Source of the DNA: Candidatus Woesearchaeota archaeon
GTDB lineage: Archaea; Nanobdellota; Nanobdellia; Woesearchaeales; ARS49
Assembly: GCA_038891615.1 (NCBI GenBank)
Contig: JAWADY010000001.1
Coordinates: forward strand, 192,001 to 256,000
Direction of reading: 5' to 3'
Length of the DNA stretch: 64,000 nucleotides
Made by a program: the position numbers and the translations under genes. The notes below the pieces were generated by a model. The model had not been told where the DNA came from and made no database searches. It saw nothing but the letters and a program-made list of their open reading frames with translations. This document shows, piece after piece, positions 17,493-29,886 of the stretch; positions within the stretch are counted from its first letter, which is position 1; each line of letters opens with the position of its first letter.

Positions 17493-17747
17493 ATGGTTAA
17501 AATGGCTACACCAAAGTTTGATGTAACAAAACACTTTCTTGTACCCAAGCACATTAAGGTGAGTGAAAAGGAGCTAAAAGAGTTAACTGAAAAGTTCGCA
17601 CTCGCTCCAGATTCCTTCCCGAAAATACTTGCAAGCGACCCTGCGATTGAGCACCTCAAAGCAAAAGAAGGTGATGTGATAAAAATCATTCGATGGTCCC
17701 CAACAGCTGGCGAGGCGGTGTATTACAGGCAGGTGATTAAGGGCTAA
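17493..17747 (+). CDS. rpoH: RNA polymerase subunit Rpo5 (H)
   Basis: HFLVPKH, PKILASDP, SPTAGEAVYYR. Confidence 0.96.
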   Translation: MVKMATPKFDVTKHFLVPKHIKVSEKELKELTEKFALAPDSFPKILASDPAIEHLKAKEGDVIKIIRWSPTAGEAVYYRQVIKG

Positions 17748-17748
17748 A

Positions 17749-19254
17749 ATGTCTGCTGAAACAAGGATACTCCTCAAAAAATATTTTGAAGAAAACTCAT
17801 TTGTACGCTCGGATATAGAATCCTTTAATGATTTCGTTGACCGAGAGCTGCATAATATTGTTGAAGAAAACAAAATAATAGAACCAACAATTATCCCTCC
17901 AAATGTTGAAAAATTCCAGATAAGGCTAGACGGGATATCTGTTGAGAAGCCAGAAATTATTGAAGCAGATGGCAGCAGGAGACCCATTTATCCGACTGAG
18001 GCAAGACTAAGAAAAATAACCTACGCAGCTCCTATTTACTTAGACATCAGTTCGCACATAAATGATGTTCAGCGCGAAAGCTTCACTCCACAAATAGGAA
18101 ACCTACCAATAATGCTGAAGTCAAAATACTGCCATCTTAATGGCCTTAGCGAAGAACAGCTTGTGGAAAAAGGCGAAGACCCATACGACCCAGGAGGTTA
18201 TTTCATCATAAATGGCACTGAGCGCATACTTGTTCATGTAGAAGACCTTGCTGCAAACAGGTTTATCGTTGAAAAAACAGGGGGTGTCAGCGAGTATACT
18301 GGAAGAATTTTCTCTGAATGGGGAAGTTACAAAATTCCGCACACTTTAGAAATGCTAAAAGACGGGCTTTTATACCTTAGCTTTAGCGGAAGAGCAAAGC
18401 GCATACCTCTCATAGTTGTCATAAAGGCTCTTGGCCTTATTAAGGATGAGGAAATTGTTAATTTTGTATCGCGTGAAAGGCAGTACGATGAAGTGCTTAT
18501 AAACCTTTTTGAATATTCCGGCATTAAAACATCAGAGGACGCAATGGAATGGATTGCAAAAGAGATTGGTATAACACAAGCAAAGGAAGTCAGACTTGAA
18601 AGGGTTTCTGAAATTTTGGACCGATTTCTTTTGCCACACATCGGTGTATCACAACATGCAAGAATAGCAAAGGCGTGGAACCTGTGCAAAATGATAAGAA
18701 AATATCTGGCAGTCGCCAATGGTGAAATAGAACCAGACGATAAAGATCACTATATGAACAAGCGCCTTAAGATGGCTGGCGACCTTCTAGCAGATCTCTT
18801 TAGGGTCAATCTTAAAATAATGATAAATGACCTTCTTTACAATTTCCAACGAAGTGTTAAGCGTGGCAAGTTTCCTTCAATAAAAACCCTTGTGAGGGAG
18901 AAGCTACTAACTTCAAGGATTTATAGCGCGATGGCAACTGGCAACTGGGTTGGTGGGCGAAAGGGAATATCTCAGAGGATTCAAAGATTAAACAACCTGA
19001 ATACTTTGAGTCATCTACAAAGGGTTGTTTCACCCTTATCCTCAACGCAAGAGAACTTCGAAGCAAGAGCGCTTCACCCAACACACTTAGGAAGACTTTG
19101 CCCAGTTGAAACCCCTGAAGGAATTCCGATTGGTTTGAGAAAAAATCTTTCACTACTTGCTTCGGTTTCACTCGAGTCGCCTGAAGAAGAAATACTTAAG
19201 GTCCTGAGGTCTGCAGGCCTCAAAGAGCTCCAGCTAGAGCGACCTGGAAAGTAA
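17749..19254 (+). CDS. rpoB2: RNA polymerase subunit Rpo2N (B'')
   Basis: EARLRKITY, DPGGYFIINGTE, CPVETPEG. Confidence 0.96.
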   Translation: MSAETRILLKKYFEENSFVRSDIESFNDFVDRELHNIVEENKIIEPTIIPPNVEKFQIRLDGISVEKPEIIEADGSRRPIYPTEARLRKITYAAPIYLDISSHINDVQRESFTPQIGNLPIMLKSKYCHLNGLSEEQLVEKGEDPYDPGGYFIINGTERILVHVEDLAANRFIVEKTGGVSEYTGRIFSEWGSYKIPHTLEMLKDGLLYLSFSGRAKRIPLIVVIKALGLIKDEEIVNFVSRERQYDEVLINLFEYSGIKTSEDAMEWIAKEIGITQAKEVRLERVSEILDRFLLPHIGVSQHARIAKAWNLCKMIRKYLAVANGEIEPDDKDHYMNKRLKMAGDLLADLFRVNLKIMINDLLYNFQRSVKRGKFPSIKTLVREKLLTSRIYSAMATGNWVGGRKGISQRIQRLNNLNTLSHLQRVVSPLSSTQENFEARALHPTHLGRLCPVETPEGIPIGLRKNLSLLASVSLESPEEEILKVLRSAGLKELQLERPGK

Positions 19255-19258
19255 CAAA

Positions 19259-21061
19259 ATGACAGAAGTTTATCTTAATGGCAAGTTTGTCGGCGATGTT
19301 GAAAGTCCTGAAGATTTCATTAGACACATAAAAAGTGAAAGAAGGAAAGGATTGATAACCCAGAATCTTAATGTCTATTATGACAAAAGGCTCGAGAGGA
19401 TTGAAGTTGAAGCAGGTCATGGAAGGGTTAGACGACCATTGATAGTTGTGCGCGATGGCCAACCTCTTCTAACAGAAAAGCACATCAAACAACTTGAAGC
19501 AGGAGAAATAAAGTGGAGCGATCTTATCAGACAGGGAGTGATAGAGTATCTTGACGCGTCTGAAGAAGAAGATGCGCTTGTTGCATTTTCTCCAAAAGAG
19601 CTAACGCCAGAACACACTCATCTCGAGATTACCCCACTTGCAATGCTTGGCCTTGTAACAAGCCTTGTACCATATGCAAACTTCATCATGCCAGTTAGAT
19701 TGATAATCGGTTCAAAAAATCTCCGACAATCAATAGGTTTTTACACAGCGAATTATCCGTTGCGGATGGATATGGACATAGGTCTGTTGCACTATCCACA
19801 AGTTCCAATTGTAAAAACAGCCATGCATGACATTTCACACTATGAACGCTATCCAGCGGGCCAAAACATTGTTATTGCTGTGATTGGGTATGAAGGCTAT
19901 AATATGGAAGATGCAATAGTCATTAACAAAGGTAGCATCCAACGCGGTTTTGGAAGGTCGACCTATTTCCGTCCTGTCATAAGCGAAGAGTTACGCTATT
20001 CAGGAGGTCTAATGGATAGGATCTGCATACCTGATAAAGATGTCAAGGGCTATAGATCTGAAAAAGATTACAGATTTCTTGAAGATGATGGAATTGTTTA
20101 TCCAGAAGCCAGGGTAAAAGAAGGAGACGTCGTCATTGGAAAAACCTCCCCACCAAGGTTCTTAAGCGCATTTGAGGAGTATGGGCTGGCTGCAAACATA
20201 AGAAGGGAAAGCTCAGAAGTGCTAAAGCATGGCGAGGGAGGGATTGTTGATTTTGTACTAATTACTGAAAACGAGGAAGGCAACAAATCAGTGCAGGTGA
20301 GAATAAGGGATCAAATGATACCTGAAATTGGGGATAAATTCATTTCAAGACATTCCCAAAAAGGTGTTGTTGGATTAATTGTTCCGGAGAGCGACATGCC
20401 CTTTACCGCTTCAGGAATCAGGCCTGACATACTTTTTAGTCCACATTCGATACCTTCAAGAATGACTATATCGCATCTCCTTGAGCTTATTGGAGCAAAG
20501 GTTGGCGCGCTTGCCGGAAGGGAAGTAGATGCAACAGCCTTTGAAGGCGAGCCGGAAGAAGCGCTGAGACAGGAACTTCTTAGATTAGGTTTCAACGAGA
20601 AAGGTATTGAGACGATGTATAATGGAATTACCGGCGAACAATACAAAGTAAAAATATTCGTTGGCCCTATGTACTACTTGAAACTTAAGCATCTTGTTGC
20701 CAACAAGATACAGTCCAGGGCACGTGGGCCAATCCAGTTGCTTACAAGGCAGCCAACTGAAGGGCGGGCAAAAGAGGGAGGGCTGAGACTTGGAGAGATG
20801 GAAAAGGACACCTTTGTGGCGCACGGGGCTGCACTCCTGCTAAAAGAGCGTTTTGATTCTGATAAGACGGTAGTTCCAGTGTGTGAAAATTGCGGGCTAA
20901 TTGCCATCCACGACAGCTATAAGAAAAAACGCTATTGCCTGGTTTGTGGTGAAAATGTTGAGATAAATGATATTGAAATTAGCTATGCTTTCAAACTTAT
21001 GCTTGACGAACTAAAAGCTATGGGAATTTATCCGAAAATGAGTCTTAAAACAAAATACTGA
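19259..21061 (+). CDS. rpoB1: RNA polymerase subunit Rpo2C (B')
   Basis: GYNMEDA, GDKFISRHSQKG, GGLRLGEME, C-terminal Zn Cys pairs. Confidence 0.97.
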   Translation: MTEVYLNGKFVGDVESPEDFIRHIKSERRKGLITQNLNVYYDKRLERIEVEAGHGRVRRPLIVVRDGQPLLTEKHIKQLEAGEIKWSDLIRQGVIEYLDASEEEDALVAFSPKELTPEHTHLEITPLAMLGLVTSLVPYANFIMPVRLIIGSKNLRQSIGFYTANYPLRMDMDIGLLHYPQVPIVKTAMHDISHYERYPAGQNIVIAVIGYEGYNMEDAIVINKGSIQRGFGRSTYFRPVISEELRYSGGLMDRICIPDKDVKGYRSEKDYRFLEDDGIVYPEARVKEGDVVIGKTSPPRFLSAFEEYGLAANIRRESSEVLKHGEGGIVDFVLITENEEGNKSVQVRIRDQMIPEIGDKFISRHSQKGVVGLIVPESDMPFTASGIRPDILFSPHSIPSRMTISHLLELIGAKVGALAGREVDATAFEGEPEEALRQELLRLGFNEKGIETMYNGITGEQYKVKIFVGPMYYLKLKHLVANKIQSRARGPIQLLTRQPTEGRAKEGGLRLGEMEKDTFVAHGAALLLKERFDSDKTVVPVCENCGLIAIHDSYKKKRYCLVCGENVEINDIEISYAFKLMLDELKAMGIYPKMSLKTKY

Positions 21062-21090: not shown

Positions 21091-23874
21091 ATGCCAAAAG
21101 CAAATCAGGAAGAATCAAGAAGGATTATCAAAGAAGAGGTTGTCTCTGAAGCACCAAAAAATGTTGCTGCTGAAGGGGCGAGTGAAAAGGCTATGGAAAA
21201 GGTTACAGAAGAAGCAGTCCGACTAGAGGGACAAGCAGTTAAGCCCGATGAGGGAGCAGCAAAAGAAGCTGTTGCAGAGGCGGAGAAAAAGCCAACGGAG
21301 GAGTTCTACGAAGAACACATCTTCAAGAAAATAGATATGCTACAATTTGGGATGTTATCACCAAAGATGATAAAAAAGATGGCGGCTGCTAAAATAGTAA
21401 CACCCGAGCTTTACGACAAAGAGGGCTATCCTGTTGATGGAGGGCTAATGGATGTCCGATTAGGCGTTATTGATCCAGGCTTGCGCTGCAAGACTTGTGG
21501 CTCAAAGTTGAAGGACTGTGTTGGGCACTTCGGCTACATCGAACTTGCCAGACCAGTCATACATGTGAAATTTGTTCCAATCATTGATATTCTTCTTAAG
21601 TCCGTATGCAAGGAATGTAGTAGGGTTTTGATACCAGAGCCAAAGCTTGAAAGTGCACGCGGTTATCTCAACAATGTTGAAGAGCGCGAAGGTATTGAAG
21701 CCAGGATGATGGCGGCAAAAGAGCTTATCACAAGATTGAAAATAAAAGTTTGCCCTTATTGCAAGAAGAAGATAGGAAAGATAACCCTTGAAAAACCAAC
21801 CACATTTATTGAAGGAGAAAAAAGGCTTTCTCCGATTGAGATAAGGGCAATATTTGAAAACATGAAGGATGAGGATTTGGAACTTCTTGGCTTGGATCCT
21901 AAAAGTGCAAGGCCTGAGTGGATGATACTGACAGTTCTTCCTGTTCCTCCTGTGACAATGAGGCCAAGCATAACGCTTGAATCTGGAGAACGCTCAGAAG
22001 ACGACCTCACCCACAAGCTAGGAGATATTGTCAGGATAAATCAGAGACTTTTTGAGAACATAAACGCAGGAGCTCCAGAAGTTATCATCGAAGACCTATG
22101 GGATTTGTTGCAATACCACATCACGACATATTTTGACAATTCAATACCACAACTTCCACCAGCAAGGCATAGGTCCGGTCAGCCTCTCAAGACGCTTACT
22201 GAGAGGATAAAATCAAAAGAGGGAAGGATAAGGCATAATCTCGCTGGAAAGAGGACAAACTTTTGTGCAAGGACGGTCATAAGCCCCGATCCCTTGCTTG
22301 AAATTGACGAGGTTGGAGTGCCCATAACGGTTGCACTAAAGGTGACAGTTGCTGAAACCGTTCAACCGTGGAATATTGATTATCTGAAAAAGTTTGTAGA
22401 AAGAGGACCAAGAGAATATCCAGGCGCCAACTATGTCATAAGGCCTGATGGAAAGAGAAAAAAGATAACCGATGAAACAAAACAGGCCCTTCTTGAAGAA
22501 CTTGCACCTGGTTATGTTGTTGAAAGACACCTTATTGACGGAGACATTGGTGTCTTGAACAGACAGCCATCCTTGCACAAAATGTCAATGATGTGCCATA
22601 GGATAAAGGTATTGCCCTACAGAACATTTAGAATAAATCCATGTGTATGCGCGCCATATGCAGCAGACTTTGATGGTGATGAAATGAATCTCCATGTACC
22701 TCAAACAGAGGAAAGCCGCGCAGAGGCCGAGTTGCTGATGCAAGTACAAACACAAGTGATAAGCCCAAGGTATGGTCTATCAATCATCGGCTGCATACAG
22801 GACGCAATAACAGGAAATTATCTTCTTACAAGTTCAAAGGAACCATTTTCCATTGAAGAAGCGGCATCGCTTCTTATTTCTGTTGGTGTGACCGACTTCT
22901 CAAGGTTGCCTAATAAAAAATCTGTAACTGGCAAAGAGATTTTTAGCGTCCTTCTGCCAAAGGATCTTGATTTTGTGGGGAAGTCAAAAAAGGGTGAAAA
23001 CGTTGTAATAAAAAATGGATGGCTGGTAGAAGGAACTATCGATGTTGCAACTATTGGAGGAGAAGGAGAAGGGATTCTCCTTAGAACGCTACACCAAAAA
23101 TATGGTGCAAAAAACGCTATTGAGATTCTTCACAAGATATTCATGCTTGGAAATGAATACCTTATGCGTAGAGGTTTCACTACAGGAATTGCTGATACCG
23201 ACCTTACGGAAGTTGGCAAAGAAGCGATAATGACTCTGCTAAGCGAGGCTGAATTGGATGTGCAAAAGCTCATCCAAATCTATGCCGAAGGTAAGCTCGA
23301 AGCGTTCCCAGGCCGTACACTTGAAGAAACGCTAGAACTCAAGATACTTGAACTTTTGAACAGGGTGAGAAATAAGTGTGGGCTTGTCGTAAGTGAGATA
23401 ACTCCGTCGGATAACGCAACAAAGATAATGGCAGACTCAGGTGCGCGAGGAAGCTTGCTTAATCTTACAATGATGGCTGCTTGTGTTGGACAGCAGGCTC
23501 TGCGCGGAAAAAGAATAAGTTATGGTTATAAGGGCAGAACTCTATCGACTTTTAAGCGCGGAGACCTTGGACCTGACGCAAGAGGCTTCATAAGGTCGAG
23601 CTACAAATCAGGGTTAAATCCAAAAGAATTCTTTTTTGGAGCAATCACCGGCAGGGATAGCCTTATGGACACCGCGCTAAGAACCCCTAAGTCAGGATAC
23701 CTTTACAGACGCCTTGCAAACGCCCTTCAAGATATCAAGGTAGAATATGATGGTACTGTAAGGGATGCTACTGGCAGAATAATCCAATTTGAGTATGGTG
23801 AAGATGGTCTTGACGTCTCAAAAACAGAACAAGGAAAAATAAATGTGGATAGGATAATTGCGATACTTGGTTGA
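21091..23874 (+). CDS. rpoA1: RNA polymerase subunit Rpo1N (A')
   Basis: GHFGYIEL, NRQPSLH, ADFDGDEMN, SGYLYRRL; acidic N-terminal extension. Confidence 0.97.
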   Translation: MPKANQEESRRIIKEEVVSEAPKNVAAEGASEKAMEKVTEEAVRLEGQAVKPDEGAAKEAVAEAEKKPTEEFYEEHIFKKIDMLQFGMLSPKMIKKMAAAKIVTPELYDKEGYPVDGGLMDVRLGVIDPGLRCKTCGSKLKDCVGHFGYIELARPVIHVKFVPIIDILLKSVCKECSRVLIPEPKLESARGYLNNVEEREGIEARMMAAKELITRLKIKVCPYCKKKIGKITLEKPTTFIEGEKRLSPIEIRAIFENMKDEDLELLGLDPKSARPEWMILTVLPVPPVTMRPSITLESGERSEDDLTHKLGDIVRINQRLFENINAGAPEVIIEDLWDLLQYHITTYFDNSIPQLPPARHRSGQPLKTLTERIKSKEGRIRHNLAGKRTNFCARTVISPDPLLEIDEVGVPITVALKVTVAETVQPWNIDYLKKFVERGPREYPGANYVIRPDGKRKKITDETKQALLEELAPGYVVERHLIDGDIGVLNRQPSLHKMSMMCHRIKVLPYRTFRINPCVCAPYAADFDGDEMNLHVPQTEESRAEAELLMQVQTQVISPRYGLSIIGCIQDAITGNYLLTSSKEPFSIEEAASLLISVGVTDFSRLPNKKSVTGKEIFSVLLPKDLDFVGKSKKGENVVIKNGWLVEGTIDVATIGGEGEGILLRTLHQKYGAKNAIEILHKIFMLGNEYLMRRGFTTGIADTDLTEVGKEAIMTLLSEAELDVQKLIQIYAEGKLEAFPGRTLEETLELKILELLNRVRNKCGLVVSEITPSDNATKIMADSGARGSLLNLTMMAACVGQQALRGKRISYGYKGRTLSTFKRGDLGPDARGFIRSSYKSGLNPKEFFFGAITGRDSLMDTALRTPKSGYLYRRLANALQDIKVEYDGTVRDATGRIIQFEYGEDGLDVSKTEQGKINVDRIIAILG

Positions 23875-23881
23875 GGTGAAA

Positions 23882-25042
23882 ATGCATCCAGAACTAGAAA
23901 AATACAAGGGCCTGATGCCTCCTTCCATTCTTGCCGAAATCGAAGAGAAGTGTCCAGCAAGCAAAATAAAAAAGGTTGCGGAGAAGGTTTATGAAGAATA
24001 CAAAAGTGCAAGGATTGATGCAGGGGAAGCGATTGGCATTGTGACAGCAGAATCACTTGGAGAGCCAGGCACCCAGATGACTTTGAATGTTTTCCACTTC
24101 GCAGGAGTTTCTGAAATGAATGTTACAATGGGCTTGCCAAGACTTATAGAGATATTTGACGGTAGAAAAACACCAACCACACCAATGATGGAAATATATT
24201 TGAAAAGTCCTTACAATAGCGGCAAGAACATTCGTGAGCTTGCGCTTTCAATCAAAGAAACAAAACTTGGGGAACTTGTGCCGGAGTTTGTCATGAACAT
24301 AGTCGATATGACAATCGAGGTCTCTCCGAATCCTGAAAAGCTAAAAAGCAGAGGACTGACTCTTGCACAGGTTGCAAAAGCTATAGAGACAGGGGTGCGC
24401 GAGGCAAGCACAAAGCTAAAGGAGGGCGTGATTATCATAAAGCCAAAGAAGTCTGAAGAGCAGACGCTGAATGCTTTGTACAGACTCAGGGAAAAACTCA
24501 AGGAAGTTTACGTCCACGGCGTGAAAGGAATAAACCAGGTCCTTCCTGTGAAAAGAAAGGATGAGTATGTTATAATCACTTCAGGCTCAAATCTTAGGAA
24601 GATTCTTGAGCTCGACTTTGTGGACCAAACAAGAACAACCACCAACGACATCTTTGAGATAGCTGAAGTACTTGGAATTGAAGCGGCCCGCAGAGCAATC
24701 CTCGAAGAGGTAAACAAAGTCGTTGCAGCGCAAGGACTTAATGTTGATATCCGTCACATCATGCTTGTTGCAGATACGATGTGTGCGGGCGGAACAATAA
24801 AAGGTGTAACACGCTATGGGGTTGTAAGTGAGAAAGCAAGTGTTCTTGCGAGAGCTTCCTTCGAAACTCCAATAAAGCACATCATCGATGCGTCGCTCAT
24901 TGGTGAGGTGGATGAGCTGAATTCTATTGTTGAAAATGTTATGATTAACCAGCCAATGCCTGTTGGCACGGGCCTTCCAAGTCTTGTCACAAAAATAATA
25001 AAGGAAGCTATGGCAAAGCCTGAAGGAAAGGAGAAAGAGTGA
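23882..25042 (+). CDS. rpoA2: RNA polymerase subunit Rpo1C (A'')
   Basis: GEPGTQMTLNVFHFAGV, GLPRLIE, RASFET; SD GAGGTGA before ATG 23882. Confidence 0.97.
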   Translation: MHPELEKYKGLMPPSILAEIEEKCPASKIKKVAEKVYEEYKSARIDAGEAIGIVTAESLGEPGTQMTLNVFHFAGVSEMNVTMGLPRLIEIFDGRKTPTTPMMEIYLKSPYNSGKNIRELALSIKETKLGELVPEFVMNIVDMTIEVSPNPEKLKSRGLTLAQVAKAIETGVREASTKLKEGVIIIKPKKSEEQTLNALYRLREKLKEVYVHGVKGINQVLPVKRKDEYVIITSGSNLRKILELDFVDQTRTTTNDIFEIAEVLGIEAARRAILEEVNKVVAAQGLNVDIRHIMLVADTMCAGGTIKGVTRYGVVSEKASVLARASFETPIKHIIDASLIGEVDELNSIVENVMINQPMPVGTGLPSLVTKIIKEAMAKPEGKEKE

Positions 25043-25318
25043 ATGGCAGAGGATGTCATTTCTGAAATAAAAAAAGCTGTCGAAACAGGAAAAGCAATTA
25101 TCGGCAAAAAGGCAACTTTGAAAGCTCTCAGAGCTGGAAGGCTTTCTAAAGTTTTCATCACTTCGAACTGTCCAAAAGATTTAAAGGAAACTATCGAAAG
25201 ATATAGCTTAGTTGCAAAGACTGAGATTATTCGACTTCCTTTTCCAAACACGGAGCTTGGGACTGTTTGTAGAAAACCTTTTTCTGTTTCAGTGATTGGT
25301 TACAGGCGGGAGAAATGA
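25043..25318 (+). CDS. rpl30e: 50S ribosomal protein L30e
   Basis: ELGTVCRKPF; operon position. Confidence 0.93.
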   Translation: MAEDVISEIKKAVETGKAIIGKKATLKALRAGRLSKVFITSNCPKDLKETIERYSLVAKTEIIRLPFPNTELGTVCRKPFSVSVIGYRREK

Positions 25319-25353
25319 TAGTTTTAGGAGAGCTTGAAAAATAGCAAGAAAAA

Positions 25354-25767
25354 ATGAGAATAAAATACGGCGCAAAAGAAATAGGTTACATGTCAGTTTT
25401 TGAAGGAACAACTGGCGCAAAAGCGATTGATTGCATCGTAATCAAAGATATGGCATTTTTTGTTGTGAAAAGCGAAGAGGTTTCAAAAGCCATCGGGAAG
25501 GGTGGTGAGAACATACACCTTCTTGAGAGACTGCTTAGAAAACGTGTCAAGGTTGCACCACTCTATGACGATGTGGCAAGATTTATAAAGGGACTTGTTT
25601 CGCCATTAAAAATAGCCCAATTCAGGATGGAGGGTAACATTGCGGTCATCACCCCTCCTGATCTAAAAACAAGGGGCTTTTTGATAGGAAGAGCAGCAAC
25701 AAACCTTCGCATGCTGGAAGCTGTTGTCAAAAGGCACTTCAAGATAGAAGAAATAAAGGTTGAATAA
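25354..25767 (+). CDS. nusA: Archaeal NusA (KH domains)
   Basis: AIGKGGENI, LIGRAATN; operon position. Confidence 0.92.
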   Translation: MRIKYGAKEIGYMSVFEGTTGAKAIDCIVIKDMAFFVVKSEEVSKAIGKGGENIHLLERLLRKRVKVAPLYDDVARFIKGLVSPLKIAQFRMEGNIAVITPPDLKTRGFLIGRAATNLRMLEAVVKRHFKIEEIKVE

Positions 25768-25806
25768 AAAACGCATTGTCTCGCGTGAAAATTTCCAACA
25801 AAAACA

Positions 25807-26235
25807 ATGGGAAACGGACTTGGAGCAGGAAGGTATCTGAAGAAGAGGCGATATTTAGATAGGCTGCACTCTAAACGATTTATCAGAAGGCTTTTTGCAC
25901 TCAAAAAGAAATCAGACCCTCTTGAAGGCGCAAGCCAAGCAAAAGGAATTGTTATCGAAAAGGTTCAGCTCGAAGCAAAGCAGCCAAATTCAGCAATGAG
26001 AAAGTGTGTAAGGGTGCAACTCATAAAGAATGGCCGCCAGGTGACTGCGTTTCTACCAAAGGATGGTGCGCAAAAAATGGTTGATGAACATGATGAAGTA
26101 ATAATAGAATGCATCGGCGGAGCAATGGGAAAGTCAAAGGGGGATATTCCTGGTGTGCGATGGGCTGTCATCAAGGTAAATGGGCAGTCGCTTGATGCAT
26201 TGTTAAAAGGTAAAATAGAAAAGGCAAGGAAGTAA
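25807..26235 (+). CDS. rps12: 30S ribosomal protein S12 (uS12)
   Basis: [24 protein letters not shown]. Confidence 0.98.
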
Positions 26236-26243
26236 AGGTTAAA

Positions 26244-26840
26244 ATGGAAATAAAAGCACTTGGCAGATGGTCTGTTAGCGGCATAGTGGTTGAGGACCCT
26301 GGATTGAAGCGTTACATATCCCTCAATCCAACAATTTTTCCGAAAACCGGGGCAAGATATGCAGGCAAGCGTTTTTACAAATCAAAAACATTTATTGTTG
26401 AAAGACTGATAAATAGGATGATGGTGACTGGTCACAAGGCAAAGAAGCATTTTATAACCTCGGGAAGATTTGGTGGCAAAGCAGCCACAATCACAAAGAT
26501 TGTTACAAACGCGCTTGCGCTTGTTGAGCAGCGTCTTAAGGAGAATCCAGTCAAGGTGCTTGTTAAGGTCATAGAGAATGCTGCCCCGCGCGAAGAGATT
26601 GTTGCAATAGAATACGGAGGCGCACGTTATCCCAAAGCAGTTGATTGCGCTCCACAAAGACGGATTGATGTTGCTCTGAAAAATATTGTTCAAGGTGCGT
26701 ACTGGAAGGCATTCAACAATAAGAAAAGGATTGCAGAGGCGCTTGCTGATGAGCTAATTGCAGCGTATCGTCTTGATGCAAAGTCAAATGCCATTGCAAA
26801 AAAATACGAGCTAGAACGACAGGCAGACAGCGCTAGATAG
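26244..26840 (+). CDS. rps7: 30S ribosomal protein S7 (uS7)
   Basis: ENAAPREE, AVDCAPQRRID, ELERQADSAR. Confidence 0.97.
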   Translation: MEIKALGRWSVSGIVVEDPGLKRYISLNPTIFPKTGARYAGKRFYKSKTFIVERLINRMMVTGHKAKKHFITSGRFGGKAATITKIVTNALALVEQRLKENPVKVLVKVIENAAPREEIVAIEYGGARYPKAVDCAPQRRIDVALKNIVQGAYWKAFNNKKRIAEALADELIAAYRLDAKSNAIAKKYELERQADSAR

Positions 26841-26978: not shown

Positions 26979-28391
26979 TTGGAAATGTTCAAGATGTCAA
27001 AAGGGCTCATTTTTGTGCTACTTGCAATAATCTTTGCAACATCAGTCTATGCCACGGCTTCTCTTAACTTTCCTACTGTTGCACTTGGAGGGCCATCACA
27101 AGAACGCAATAAAAATGCTTCCACTTCTGTTACAATAACAAACACTGGAGATGTAACACTCAGCAATTTGACATTTTCAACAAATGCTGACGCAAAGTAT
27201 GGTGTGACATTTTCAGGAAGCTGTATAAATGCACAATTGGCATCAGGCGGAACATGCACACTGACAACATCTGCTAGCGTCCCAAAAGATTTTGATGCGG
27301 TTGATTCTTCAAGCCTTCAAGAAAAGGCATTTCTGATAGGTACAATAACCGCATCGGCTAATTATTCCTCTGGAAATGGCTCGGTAATAATAACGACAAC
27401 AACAAACCTGACACTGCAAGCAGAGAATCAACTTGAACTTCGCAAAGTCAAGGTAATTGTTAATGGCATTGAGGATTCTGTCAGCGACGGCGATACTGTT
27501 AGAAAAATAAAGCCGGGTGATGAAATAGATATCGAGATAACCGTAAAAAATAACTTTGACGATTCAAAAAACGATGTGACCATAGAGAATGTTGAGGTTA
27601 AGGCAAAAGTTGATGATAATGACCTTGATATAGATGAGTCTGAAGATATAGGCGATTTAGATGCTGACGACTCTGATACAATCAGCTTCAACAACCTTCT
27701 TGTTGACGAGGAGGCTGACGGAACTTATGACCTAGTCATAAGCGCAACAGGAAGGGATGAAAATGGCGCACTTCACGCTGACAAGATGACTGTAAAGCTA
27801 AAGGTTGAGCGCGAAACACATGAAATCAAAATAACAAAGGCATTACTTACAAACAGCAAGCTTGCATGTGTAGAAGGCAGCATTACGGACACAACCGCAA
27901 GGATAAGCTTTGTAAACATTGGCAAACGCGATGAAAAAGAAGTTGCCATTTCTGCATCAATCGACAAGCTTGGCATTACAGCAAGAAAAGATGGCATAGA
28001 GCTTGAAAAGGACGACAGCTCGAGTATAAGCCTTTTACTTGACATTCCGGATAGCGCAAAAGCTGGAACATATGATGTTACAGTGACAAGTTATTATAAC
28101 AATGATGTGCCATCAGACACAAAGACAATCCCACTGCAGATAGAAAAGTGTGAGCAGCCACAAAACGCTTCTACGACCACAACAGCAACACCAACCACCC
28201 CAACAGCACCAACTACAACAGCGACAACTCAAGCCATAACAACACCAACCATCAGGCTTACAGAAAAAGCACAAAAGAGCACTCCATTTACAGAGACCCC
28301 AGCATATCTCTGGCTGCTGGGTGGAATAAGCGCAGGGATTGTGATTGTTATATTCCAACTCATCAGCAAGCTGCTGCTGGTGAGGAAGTAG
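26979..28391 (+). CDS. Putative S-layer / cell-surface glycoprotein
   Basis: Signal peptide, Ig/CARDB-like acidic beta domains, Thr-rich linker, C-terminal TM; start may be 26985 or 26994. Confidence 0.75.
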   Translation: MEMFKMSKGLIFVLLAIIFATSVYATASLNFPTVALGGPSQERNKNASTSVTITNTGDVTLSNLTFSTNADAKYGVTFSGSCINAQLASGGTCTLTTSASVPKDFDAVDSSSLQEKAFLIGTITASANYSSGNGSVIITTTTNLTLQAENQLELRKVKVIVNGIEDSVSDGDTVRKIKPGDEIDIEITVKNNFDDSKNDVTIENVEVKAKVDDNDLDIDESEDIGDLDADDSDTISFNNLLVDEEADGTYDLVISATGRDENGALHADKMTVKLKVERETHEIKITKALLTNSKLACVEGSITDTTARISFVNIGKRDEKEVAISASIDKLGITARKDGIELEKDDSSSISLLLDIPDSAKAGTYDVTVTSYYNNDVPSDTKTIPLQIEKCEQPQNASTTTTATPTTPTAPTTTATTQAITTPTIRLTEKAQKSTPFTETPAYLWLLGGISAGIVIVIFQLISKLLLVRK

Positions 28392-28602
28392 AAGAGAGGA
28401 AATTGAGAGAAGCGCTGGTTTTAATTTTTTCTTAATTTATTTTCACTTTTTTCATTTTTGAACGATAAAAAGGTCAAAGCAAGGGTTTTTTACGGCTGAA
28501 AGCATCAACTTTTCACTGTTGGTGTAAAGGTTACGACTTTTTCTGAGAAATGCAAATTAAGACTGCTTTGATGCCCTCTTGAAAACAGGAGGGAAGCGCT
28601 AA

Positions 28603-29886
28603 ATGAAACCAACTGCCTTCTTTTTTGCATTATTTGCCATGATATTTCTCATTCAAATAGGCTCAGTTGGCTTCGCTAAAATAGAAATAAGGCAAGTGCT
28701 TTATGATCCTATTTCTTCTGAAAATGGTGGCGAGGCAGTTCAACTTCATAACCCAGAGGACGAAGATGTAGATATCAGCGGCTGGGCGCTCTCAACCGAA
28801 GCAAGCAAGTATGACGCAAGGTTGCCTGAAGGTTCTGTTATTCCAGCCGGAGGTTATTTTCTTATTGCAGATACTGGCTGGTCTAGCGCTAAAGATGACC
28901 CAAACTGGCCTGAGGCTGATTATGAAGAATCGATAAATTTGTACAACAGCAACTCCGGAGTTGCCCTTCTCAAGGCAGACGGCACGGTTGTAGATGCGGT
29001 TGGATGGGGCGAGCTAAGCCAGATAAAGGCAGGTCTTTGGACAGGACGACCTGCAAAAGAGGTTAGTGAAGGCAAGGTTCTGTTAAGGACAAAAAGCACA
29101 GAAGATAATGCTGTTGATTTTGTGGAAGCAGATGCGGACTTTGGAACAATTCCACAAAATATAACAAAGCTAGAGCTAAGTATGGATATTGAAGGAGGAA
29201 TTTTGATAGAAGAAATTGAAATTAGCCCAGATGAACTAGATAAACCAGGTGTTCAGATTTACCCTCTAGCAGGCGGAACCAAGAATCTGACAATAAAAGT
29301 TAAAGTTGCAGCCAGCCAAACAGAAATTGAAAGGCTGACCCTAACAGCGGCCCTTGCAAACAAGACTATAGCATTGCATATGATGGCCCAACAAAATGAA
29401 ACAATAGCTTTATACGAAGGCACAATTCCAATAGAATTCACAAAAAAGCCATCCAATTATAGCATCACAATAAATTCGTTTATAGACCTCATTCAAATTG
29501 GAGAAGCCACAACGAGTTTTGAATGGATGCCGCTTGCGTCTTTTAAAATAATCGGCGAAAACAAAAAGATTAAGATAAGCGCGGCGCCCGGTGAACTGAA
29601 GAACATGCCTAATGCACTTGAAATAATAAATAATGGAAATGTTCCTATAGACATAGCTGCTTCGAGTACAGGGTTTGTGATGCAAGGAACAAACCAAACA
29701 CAAAAAGTTGCCGCGACCAACATAAGAATAAACTCAAAAGGCCTTGCCAACACCCCAAGAACAATACCCCTTGCAATTGCACCTGGCGATGTCGCAAGGC
29801 TAAATCTCAGCATAAATATTCCGCAAAAGGCAAAAAAAGGGAGCTACATTGGAGAGATAAAGTTATGGACAATACCAACGAAATGA
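28603..29886 (+). CDS. Secreted lamin-tail-domain protein with Ig-like domains
   Basis: IRQVLYDP...EAVQLHNP...VDISGW...IPAGGYFLI...VDAVGWG. Confidence 0.8.
   Translation: MKPTAFFFALFAMIFLIQIGSVGFAKIEIRQVLYDPISSENGGEAVQLHNPEDEDVDISGWALSTEASKYDARLPEGSVIPAGGYFLIADTGWSSAKDDPNWPEADYEESINLYNSNSGVALLKADGTVVDAVGWGELSQIKAGLWTGRPAKEVSEGKVLLRTKSTEDNAVDFVEADADFGTIPQNITKLELSMDIEGGILIEEIEISPDELDKPGVQIYPLAGGTKNLTIKVKVAASQTEIERLTLTAALANKTIALHMMAQQNETIALYEGTIPIEFTKKPSNYSITINSFIDLIQIGEATTSFEWMPLASFKIIGENKKIKISAAPGELKNMPNALEIINNGNVPIDIAASSTGFVMQGTNQTQKVAATNIRINSKGLANTPRTIPLAIAPGDVARLNLSINIPQKAKKGSYIGEIKLWTIPTK

Follow-up and report, generated by a model that had tools for sequence, protein, structure and literature searches.

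The window analysed here is the whole stretch of 64,000 nucleotides at positions 192,001 to 256,000 of contig JAWADY010000001.1 (GenBank assembly GCA_038891615.1), from a Candidatus Woesearchaeota archaeon. It contains an RNA polymerase (RNAP) operon, and the subject of this study is a single residue in the catalytic motif of the large-subunit protein Rpo1N. Nucleotides 22651-22689 (GCG CCA TAT GCA GCA GAC TTT GAT GGT GAT GAA ATG AAT) are translated as A-P-Y-A-A-D-F-D-G-D-E-M-N in the frame of the forward-strand open reading frame (ORF) at 21091-23874, which places an Ala where the NADFDGD motif has its Asn.

The RNA polymerase genes and the altered codon

The genes are arranged in the order rpoH, rpo2N, rpo2C, rpo1N, rpo1C, L30e, NusA-KH, S12 and S7, the usual archaeal RNAP and ribosomal operon (Table 1). 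The Rpo1N ORF matches the five Pfam Rpb1 domains in order (PF04997, PF00623, PF04983, PF05000 and PF04998), with E values from 1e-91 to 6e-22. The frame ends inside domain 5, covering profile positions 1-67 of PF04998, and the remainder is encoded by the separate Rpo1C, which takes positions 67-265; this is the archaeal Rpo1N split. In comparison with canonical archaeal Rpo1N (8cro_A, 4qiw_A, 2pmz_A and others), the match is full-length (E from 1e-265 to 1e-288), and the domains, the Rpo1N/Rpo1C split and the operon are the same, yet Ala524 stands for Asn and Leu489 for Phe. The nearest database proteins are named RpoA' of Woesearchaeota, Nanoarchaeota or Nanobdellota. Although the Asn before ADFDGD is absent, the protein is retained as a member of the Rpo1N family, since the Rpo1N of 16 other species and a clade of beta' subunits in the Candidate Phyla Radiation (CPR) lack this residue as well.

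The genome (G000) comprises 661,270 bases in five contigs and is 97.87% complete and 0.19% contaminated. A single Rpo1N match was obtained in the whole genome. The site thus lies in the organism's sole RNAP, in agreement with a preliminary description of this DNA that took the enzyme for a housekeeping polymerase. As a separate observation, the N-terminus of Rpo1N (window positions 21091-21320) consists of some 75 residues, with Glu, Ala and Lys abundant among them, and Pfam domain 1 starts at residue 79. Related proteins begin to align anywhere from Rpo1N position 1 to position 76, which indicates that this N-terminal extension differs in length among kin.

Table 1. Coordinates in the window of the RNA polymerase genes, the active-site elements and the adjoining genes.
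Feature	Position	Strand	Remarks
Ala524 of Rpo1N (GCA)	22660..22662	+	Replaces the Asn of NADFDGD; equivalent to E. coli beta' N458 and yeast Rpb1 N479
ADFDGD metal-binding aspartate triad D526, D528, D530	22663..22680	+	Intact; invariant in 70/70 aligned sequences
L489-N490-R491 of LNRQPSLH	22555..22563	+	R491 taken as the ribose 2'-OH-sensing Arg; L489 replaces Phe
rpo1N (rpoA')	21091..23874	+	927 residues; single copy; Pfam Rpb1 domains 1-5
rpoH (Rpb5 C-terminal domain)	17493..17747	+	First gene of the operon
rpo2N (17749-19254) and rpo2C (19259-21061)	17749..21061	+	Split B subunit; 0 departures at conserved columns
rpo1C (rpoA'')	23858..25042	+	394 residues; trigger loop GTQMTLNVFHFAG; Gln73 (24074-24076) and His80 (24095-24097) kept
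L30e-family, NusA-type KH, S12 and S7 genes	25043..26840	+	Downstream of rpo1C

The codon was compared with public sequencing data. Six hot-spring metagenome runs from two studies contain a fraction of 0.98 of the words sampled across the window, and any of these runs may be the source sample. In the Logan contigs of all four runs compared (X1, X2, X3 and X5, again from two studies), codon 22660-22662 is covered and no other letter is found, with word depths at the codon of 12, 16.5, 35.5 and 9.4, respectively. Over 3952 bases the sole difference is 22888 G>A (Val600Met in Rpo1N), which is present in all four runs. The X2 and X3 contigs break at 22669-22698, corresponding to motif DNA common to co-occurring organisms. 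Given a second contig in X2, from another organism and with a depth of 4.5, reads ...CAPYN before this shared motif DNA, the Asn and Ala forms were assembled as separate sequences. The exact Rpo1N protein and a one-residue variant of it form a two-member database cluster, on four contigs and one contig, respectively.

Because four runs of two studies agree at a depth of 9-36, the GCA codon is not a miscall, and the reading PYAADFDGD is confirmed. The preliminary description had reached the same view from the three base differences between AAY and GCA; the count is correct, but the third position is synonymous within Ala, and two amino-acid-changing steps suffice. A more general form of the objection would attribute the site to a miscall, to chimerism in the assembly or to a polymerase copy that is inactive. 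Nothing was found in its favour; the only caveats are that rare variants go unseen in contigs and that the source sample may be among the runs. Apart from the agreement of the runs, the frame is intact and lies in a canonical operon, the gene is the only copy in a nearly complete genome, the enzyme departs from its kin at just two of 507 conserved columns, and the same state occurs in the genomes of 16 other species. We consider this explanation extremely improbable.

Distribution of Ala and Gly at the site

All 29 loci of the closest species (27 from the same family and two from the same order, with 64-70% identity) read NADFDGD. When a database was searched with residues 500-560, 119 of the best 120 of 6371 matches likewise presented NADFDGD, and the one exception among them, with AADFDGD, is the window's own cluster.

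The phylum was surveyed in 401 genomes of at least 90% completeness, each searched with three DNA patterns based on the motif form Y-x-ADFDGDEM. A codon not starting with A was found in 17 of the 401 genomes (G000 included), and all of these codons are either GCN (Ala, six genomes) or GGN (Gly, eleven genomes). A codon starting with A and having a second base other than A, which would encode Ile, Met, Thr, Ser or Arg, was found in none of the 401. The codon AAN occurs in 352 genomes, and all 150 listed rows are AAT or AAC. No pattern matched in 32 genomes, which flank variation or an unassembled gene may explain. In the phylum of a Methanolinea metagenome-assembled genome, the non-Asn pattern was found in none of 301 genomes.

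Three genera present both states: Gly is found in G128 and G352 and Asn in G347 and G401 (genus g228), Ala in G084 and G338 and Asn in G131, G143 and G244 (genus g216), and Gly in G252 and Asn in four species (genus g214). Synonymous variation also exists: both GGA and GGT are found in each of g257 and g228, and both GCA and GCT in the Ala lines. Since third codon positions differ inside clades, the Ala/Gly state persists through speciation and synonymous codon change.

In order to count the origins of this state, an Rpo1N tree was built with FastTree from 70 sequences, comprising the window's protein, 16 other Ala/Gly species, 24 Asn-type kin and the 29 loci of the closest species. Fitch parsimony on this tree requires ten changes between Asn and Ala/Gly, and the window's Rpo1N is sister to that of the Asn-type species L021, with a support of 0.99. 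Given L181 (Ala) and L182 with L183 (Gly) share an odd trigger loop, and supports there are 0.76-0.84, they may represent one origin, which makes nine to ten switches a fair figure. Three Asn-type controls come from genomes flagged as unpublished (G009, G034 and G024), and the tree result is the same without them. Hence, the phylum has seen some ten switches from Asn to Ala or Gly. A further difference close to the motif was noted in the Gly-type L174, L175 and L176 (g257), where the usual PQTEEA is PQTPEA (Glu540Pro); Glu is present at this position in 53/53 Asn-type sequences.

The search was extended beyond the phylum by scanning metagenomes for Y-[Gly/Ala]-ADFDGD-[E/Q]-M, which yielded at least 118 loci: at least 67 with Gly and E, at least 29 with Ala and E, at least 20 with Gly and Q, and at least 2 with Ala and Q. 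Among the 118 loci listed, BLASTP placed 48 (39 Gly and 9 Ala) at 50% identity or more to the DPANN set and 12 (all Gly) at 50% or more to CPR beta', and the other 58 are below 50% to either, being mostly RPB1-like frames of 1400-2000 residues. One such frame falls among virus clusters of the Nucleocytoviricota type in Atlas, which serves as a lead only. RPB1-like frames with Gly or Ala at the site include L218, L220, L226, L230, L256, L277 and L283, virus-like by the Atlas lead, and several RPB1-like metagenome frames also differ after the motif (NIF..., NIHLAQS...). For the ORFs with GADFDGDQM...KALRT, a phage identity was considered, and tblastn of phage records gave weak matches of at most 29% identity, the best of which was a Mollyvirus RPB1. 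For the Gly-type hot-spring ORFs of 849 residues (L224), Atlas pointed to viruses as well as to archaea, again as leads only. A scan of the whole GTDB for AADFDGD at the DNA level was also attempted and discarded, as the pattern was too loose: the rows fetched were all FG-GAP-like repeats of the AADFDGDG type, none of them followed by E/Q-M.

When one bacterial-type protein was used as a database query, the best 120 beta' clusters were divided into 69 with Gly and 51 with Asn. The named Gly clusters among these are Candidatus Woykebacteria or "Patescibacteria group", and those with Asn belong to Buchnera and to other CPR groups. As an observation on these sequences, the Woykebacteria-type beta' reads GADFDGDQM (P0123-P0186 and others; loci L247, L248, L288 and similar), in neighbouring CPR groups NADFDGDQM.

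The preliminary description had called the Asn near-invariant. This is overstated, given Ala or Gly occurs in 16 of the 400 other species of the phylum, Gly in a CPR clade, and Ala or Gly in many virus-like RPB1 genes. It had also allowed that its reading would fall if the variant proved both widespread and neutral, of which the former alone is now established.

Conservation of the remaining active site

The four large-subunit proteins were aligned with their relatives (70 sequences for Rpo1N, 70 for Rpo1C, 41 for Rpo2N and 69 for Rpo2C), and columns at least 93% conserved were considered as conserved. The enzyme of this genome departs at two of 507 such columns, namely F489L in Rpo1N and V357I in Rpo1C. 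This count is among the lowest and is below that of most Asn-type kin. Two general explanations were evaluated on these alignments and rejected. A general decay of the enzyme is not supported, as departures at conserved columns fail to separate Ala/Gly from Asn sequences. A compensating substitution shared by the Ala/Gly lineages is not supported either, as position 524 is the only column altered in all ten of them across the four subunit alignments; the next-best columns are changed in five to six lineages and lie within variable regions.

Arg491 is kept in 70/70 aligned sequences. It lies in the motif NRxPxLH, 33 residues before position 524, and the same spacing separates R425 from N458 in beta' and R446 from N479 in Rpb1. 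We take Arg491 to be the equivalent of R425 and R446, a placement consistent with this spacing and with the offset of the yeast Rpb1 match. Two residues before Arg491 is Leu489, at a column that is Phe in the other 69/69 aligned DPANN sequences and in 119/119 Asn-type database proteins.

The preliminary description proposed compensating changes. None is common to the Ala/Gly lineages, yet F489L, present here and in none of the relatives compared, may be an adjustment particular to this lineage. Under this explanation, F489L would reposition Arg491 or its water network and thereby restore the missing Asn contact, leaving selectivity unchanged. The uniqueness of Leu489 and its being one of only two departures at conserved columns agree with it, as does the finding, in passages of PMC7619134, that Arg446, Pro448 and Ser454 of the equivalent segment sit on a water chain reaching the 2'-OH. 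However, the change is seen in one lineage only, and Phe is kept in the other 16 Ala/Gly species. Moreover, bacteria normally pair Leu at this column with Asn (50/51 Asn-type CPR and Buchnera sequences), and Phe to Leu is a conservative replacement. We therefore regard local compensation as rather unlikely.

The trigger loop, which is located in Rpo1C, keeps Gln73, Leu76, Asn77 and His80. The Gln (in TQM) is present in 17/17 Ala/Gly sequences, and equally in the six Asn-type kin with which they were compared. His80 (in FHFAG) follows seven residues after the Gln, as is the case in Q1078/H1085 and Q929/H936. This His varies among other Ala/Gly species: it is Leu (NTKLLAG) in L181 (G061), L182 (G049) and L183 (G263), and Arg (NVFRMAG) in L177 (G084) and L178 (G338). 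It is also Arg in the metagenome Ala/Gly loci L241 and L287, with NVFRMAG and NVFRSAG as the forms recorded for Arg. Among Asn-type species, a first set presents His in 53/53 sequences. In a second set, the trigger loop was found by pattern in 49 of 60 stretches, of which 47 have His, one Trp (G303) and one Leu (G305).

The His is thus lost in 5/16 Ala/Gly species, representing three lineages, versus 2/102 Asn-type species, figures in which related species are not independent. Loss of the His is commoner with Ala/Gly than with Asn, a difference that is suggestive only. A strict coupling of the two changes was rejected, given the two Asn-type species without His. These two, L328 (G303; RTKWLAG) and L331 (G305; RTKLTSG), were noted in their own right: because they lack the His beside an intact Asn, the "catalytic" His is dispensable in some archaeal housekeeping RNAPs.

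Possible effects on nucleotide recognition

The preliminary description identified the replaced residue as a ribose-contacting Asn. This agrees with passages of PMC7619134 and PMC7862312, in which the Asn contacts the 3'-OH directly and the 2'-OH through water. As described in the former, Gln1078 and Asn479 make direct contacts to the 3'-OH of ATP, and the 2'-OH is contacted directly by Arg446 and, via water W2, by the Asn479 and Gln1078 amides. In passages of PMC7862312, Arg425, Asn458 and Gln929 of beta' are termed universally conserved, with Arg425 as the main determinant of sugar selectivity. There, N458S lowers selectivity against 2'-dGTP about 4-fold at the binding step, and the Ser mutants of E. 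coli and yeast lose less than 5-fold in selectivity. According to passages of PMC5737373, N479S Pol II has a lower affinity for ribonucleoside triphosphates (rNTPs), and a substitution at the N479 position is present in each of the plant polymerases Pol IV and Pol V, which produce RNA and use deoxyribonucleoside triphosphates (dNTPs) more readily than Pol II.

These are the closest known systems. In comparison with E. coli beta' N458S and yeast Rpb1 N479S, the same residue is changed, and the mutants are active (PMC7862312 and PMC5737373), with lower rNTP affinity and discrimination against 2'-dNTPs less than 5-fold weaker. The mutants carry Ser, which was found in none of the 401 genomes of the phylum, whereas the present case is a fixed Ala in a wild organism. 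Natural multisubunit RNAPs with a substitution at the equivalent position are also known from plants, namely Pol IV and Pol V (NRPD1/NRPE1). However, they are specialised extra polymerases that have diverged at about 140 ultra-conserved positions and at three of four trigger-loop contact residues, whereas the present enzyme is the sole housekeeping polymerase and has kept its trigger loop. The wide relaxation observed in Pol IV and Pol V is not found here.

With a probability of about 0.75, we read the locus as a genuine, fixed Asn-to-Ala replacement in the sole, otherwise highly conserved and presumably fully working RNAP of a genome-reduced DPANN archaeon. That the enzyme is active is presumed from its single copy and its strong sequence conservation. 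The loss of the Asn amide, one of the three partners of the ribose, would remove the direct contact to the 3'-OH of the incoming nucleoside triphosphate (NTP) and the water-mediated contact to the 2'-OH. The trigger-loop Gln and Arg491 would have to make these contacts instead, probably together with an additional water where the small side chain leaves room. Such a water would account for the exclusive occurrence of Ala and Gly, with Ser, Thr and Asp never observed: at this place the enzyme may accept the Asn amide or a substitute water, and may not accept a short polar or charged side chain. Judging by the Ser mutants, a modest drop in rNTP affinity and a few-fold weaker discrimination against 2'- and 3'-deoxy substrates would be expected. 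The altered nucleotide selectivity put forward in the preliminary description is therefore plausible, but judging from N458S and N479S the effect should be small (below 5-fold), and Arg491 is intact. A loss of this size would be tolerable in slow-growing episymbionts, so that Asn and Ala/Gly may be two viable states rather than a wild type and a defect.

Several points weigh against this reading. The census patterns demanded a Tyr before and an Ala after the site, so that other residues could be hidden in the unmatched genomes, and 202 of the 352 AAN rows came without a codon listing, which leaves room for Lys. In the Methanolinea phylum, only the centre genome was confirmed as canonical, and the completeness of the 301 genomes is not given. 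Since contigs drop rare variants, a minority Asn allele could be hidden in the metagenomes. Among the runs listed for the locus, none is an RNA run that would show expression. The replacement of the Asn amide by an extra water, though probable, is a proposal. No biochemical study of an enzyme with Ala or Gly at this position was found, and the published mutants have Ser, which our sample never showed in a natural enzyme, so that extrapolation from them is uncertain.

The recurrence of the change in DPANN archaea, CPR bacteria and, by the virus-like genes, large viruses, together with its absence from the 301 genomes of the methanogen phylum, points either to relaxed selection in small, slow-growing and host-dependent populations or to adaptive retuning. 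Under the latter, Ala and Gly would have been positively selected in ultra-small symbionts and viruses, changing substrate choice or kinetics. They could benefit by tolerating nucleotide pools that are scavenged or unusual, by using deoxy or modified nucleotides, or by evading an inhibitor that imitates the ribose contact. The approximately ten switches are in agreement with this explanation, as are the use of only two residues with the single-step intermediates Ser, Thr and Asp unseen in 401 genomes, the enrichment in DPANN, and the parallel occurrence in CPR Woykebacteria and in virus-like RPB1 genes. Nevertheless, sister species of the same genus differ in state without obvious other change, and the published Ser mutants shift selectivity only few-fold (passages of PMC7862312). 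A lost 3'-OH contact should also make 3'-deoxy chain terminators harder, not easier, to exclude. The genomes gave no correlate of the change either: the large subunit of ribonucleotide reductase (PF02867) is present in 15/17 Ala/Gly genomes versus 14/19 Asn-type kin. A link to dNTP supply was rejected on these counts, in a search confined to PF02867. Adaptive retuning is, in our judgement, unlikely.

A broader version would treat the loss of Asn as a recurrent, selected alternative design of the active site in DPANN archaea, CPR Woykebacteria and large viruses. A small residue with an ordered water would retune NTP affinity and the checking of the sugar and 3'-OH to host-derived pools, and in some lineages this would permit more extensive remodelling, with loss of the trigger-loop His as one instance. 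This proposal is similarly doubtful. In G000 itself, two matches to the ribonucleotide reductase large-subunit family were noted, both above the curated cut-off (G000:C1:18982-20397 and G000:C2:136151-137767).

Considered in this genome alone, fixation of Ala, our preferred reading, is a single change in a familiar enzyme. Across lineages, the pattern is a natural dimorphism of Asn and Ala/Gly at a residue described as universally conserved, with about ten independent origins in one archaeal phylum and one across a whole CPR clade. Full-text searches returned no paper on this dimorphism and none with AADFDGD or GADFDGD, subscription journals and supplements lying outside their scope. They also returned no paper pairing NADFDGD with DPANN, and NADFDGD is absent from the 15 papers listed out of 1,173 matching on DPANN or CPR groups. 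The residue has so far been probed with Ser mutants only, and natural, long-lived Ala and Gly versions are now available in sole housekeeping polymerases. Sister species that differ at this one site provide a comparative series for the role of the Asn in sugar selection, 3'-OH recognition, speed and fidelity, which also bears on why only Ala and Gly replace it. For annotation, motif checks demanding NADFDGD would wrongly flag the Ala and Gly polymerases as defective.

Finally, two genes directly after S7 were noted (window 26979-29886), the first encoding a 470-residue protein with weak Ig-like and NPCBM-associated matches and the second a 427-residue protein with a lamin-tail domain. In archaea, the gene after S7 is often that of an elongation factor, so this S7 neighbourhood may be unusual.

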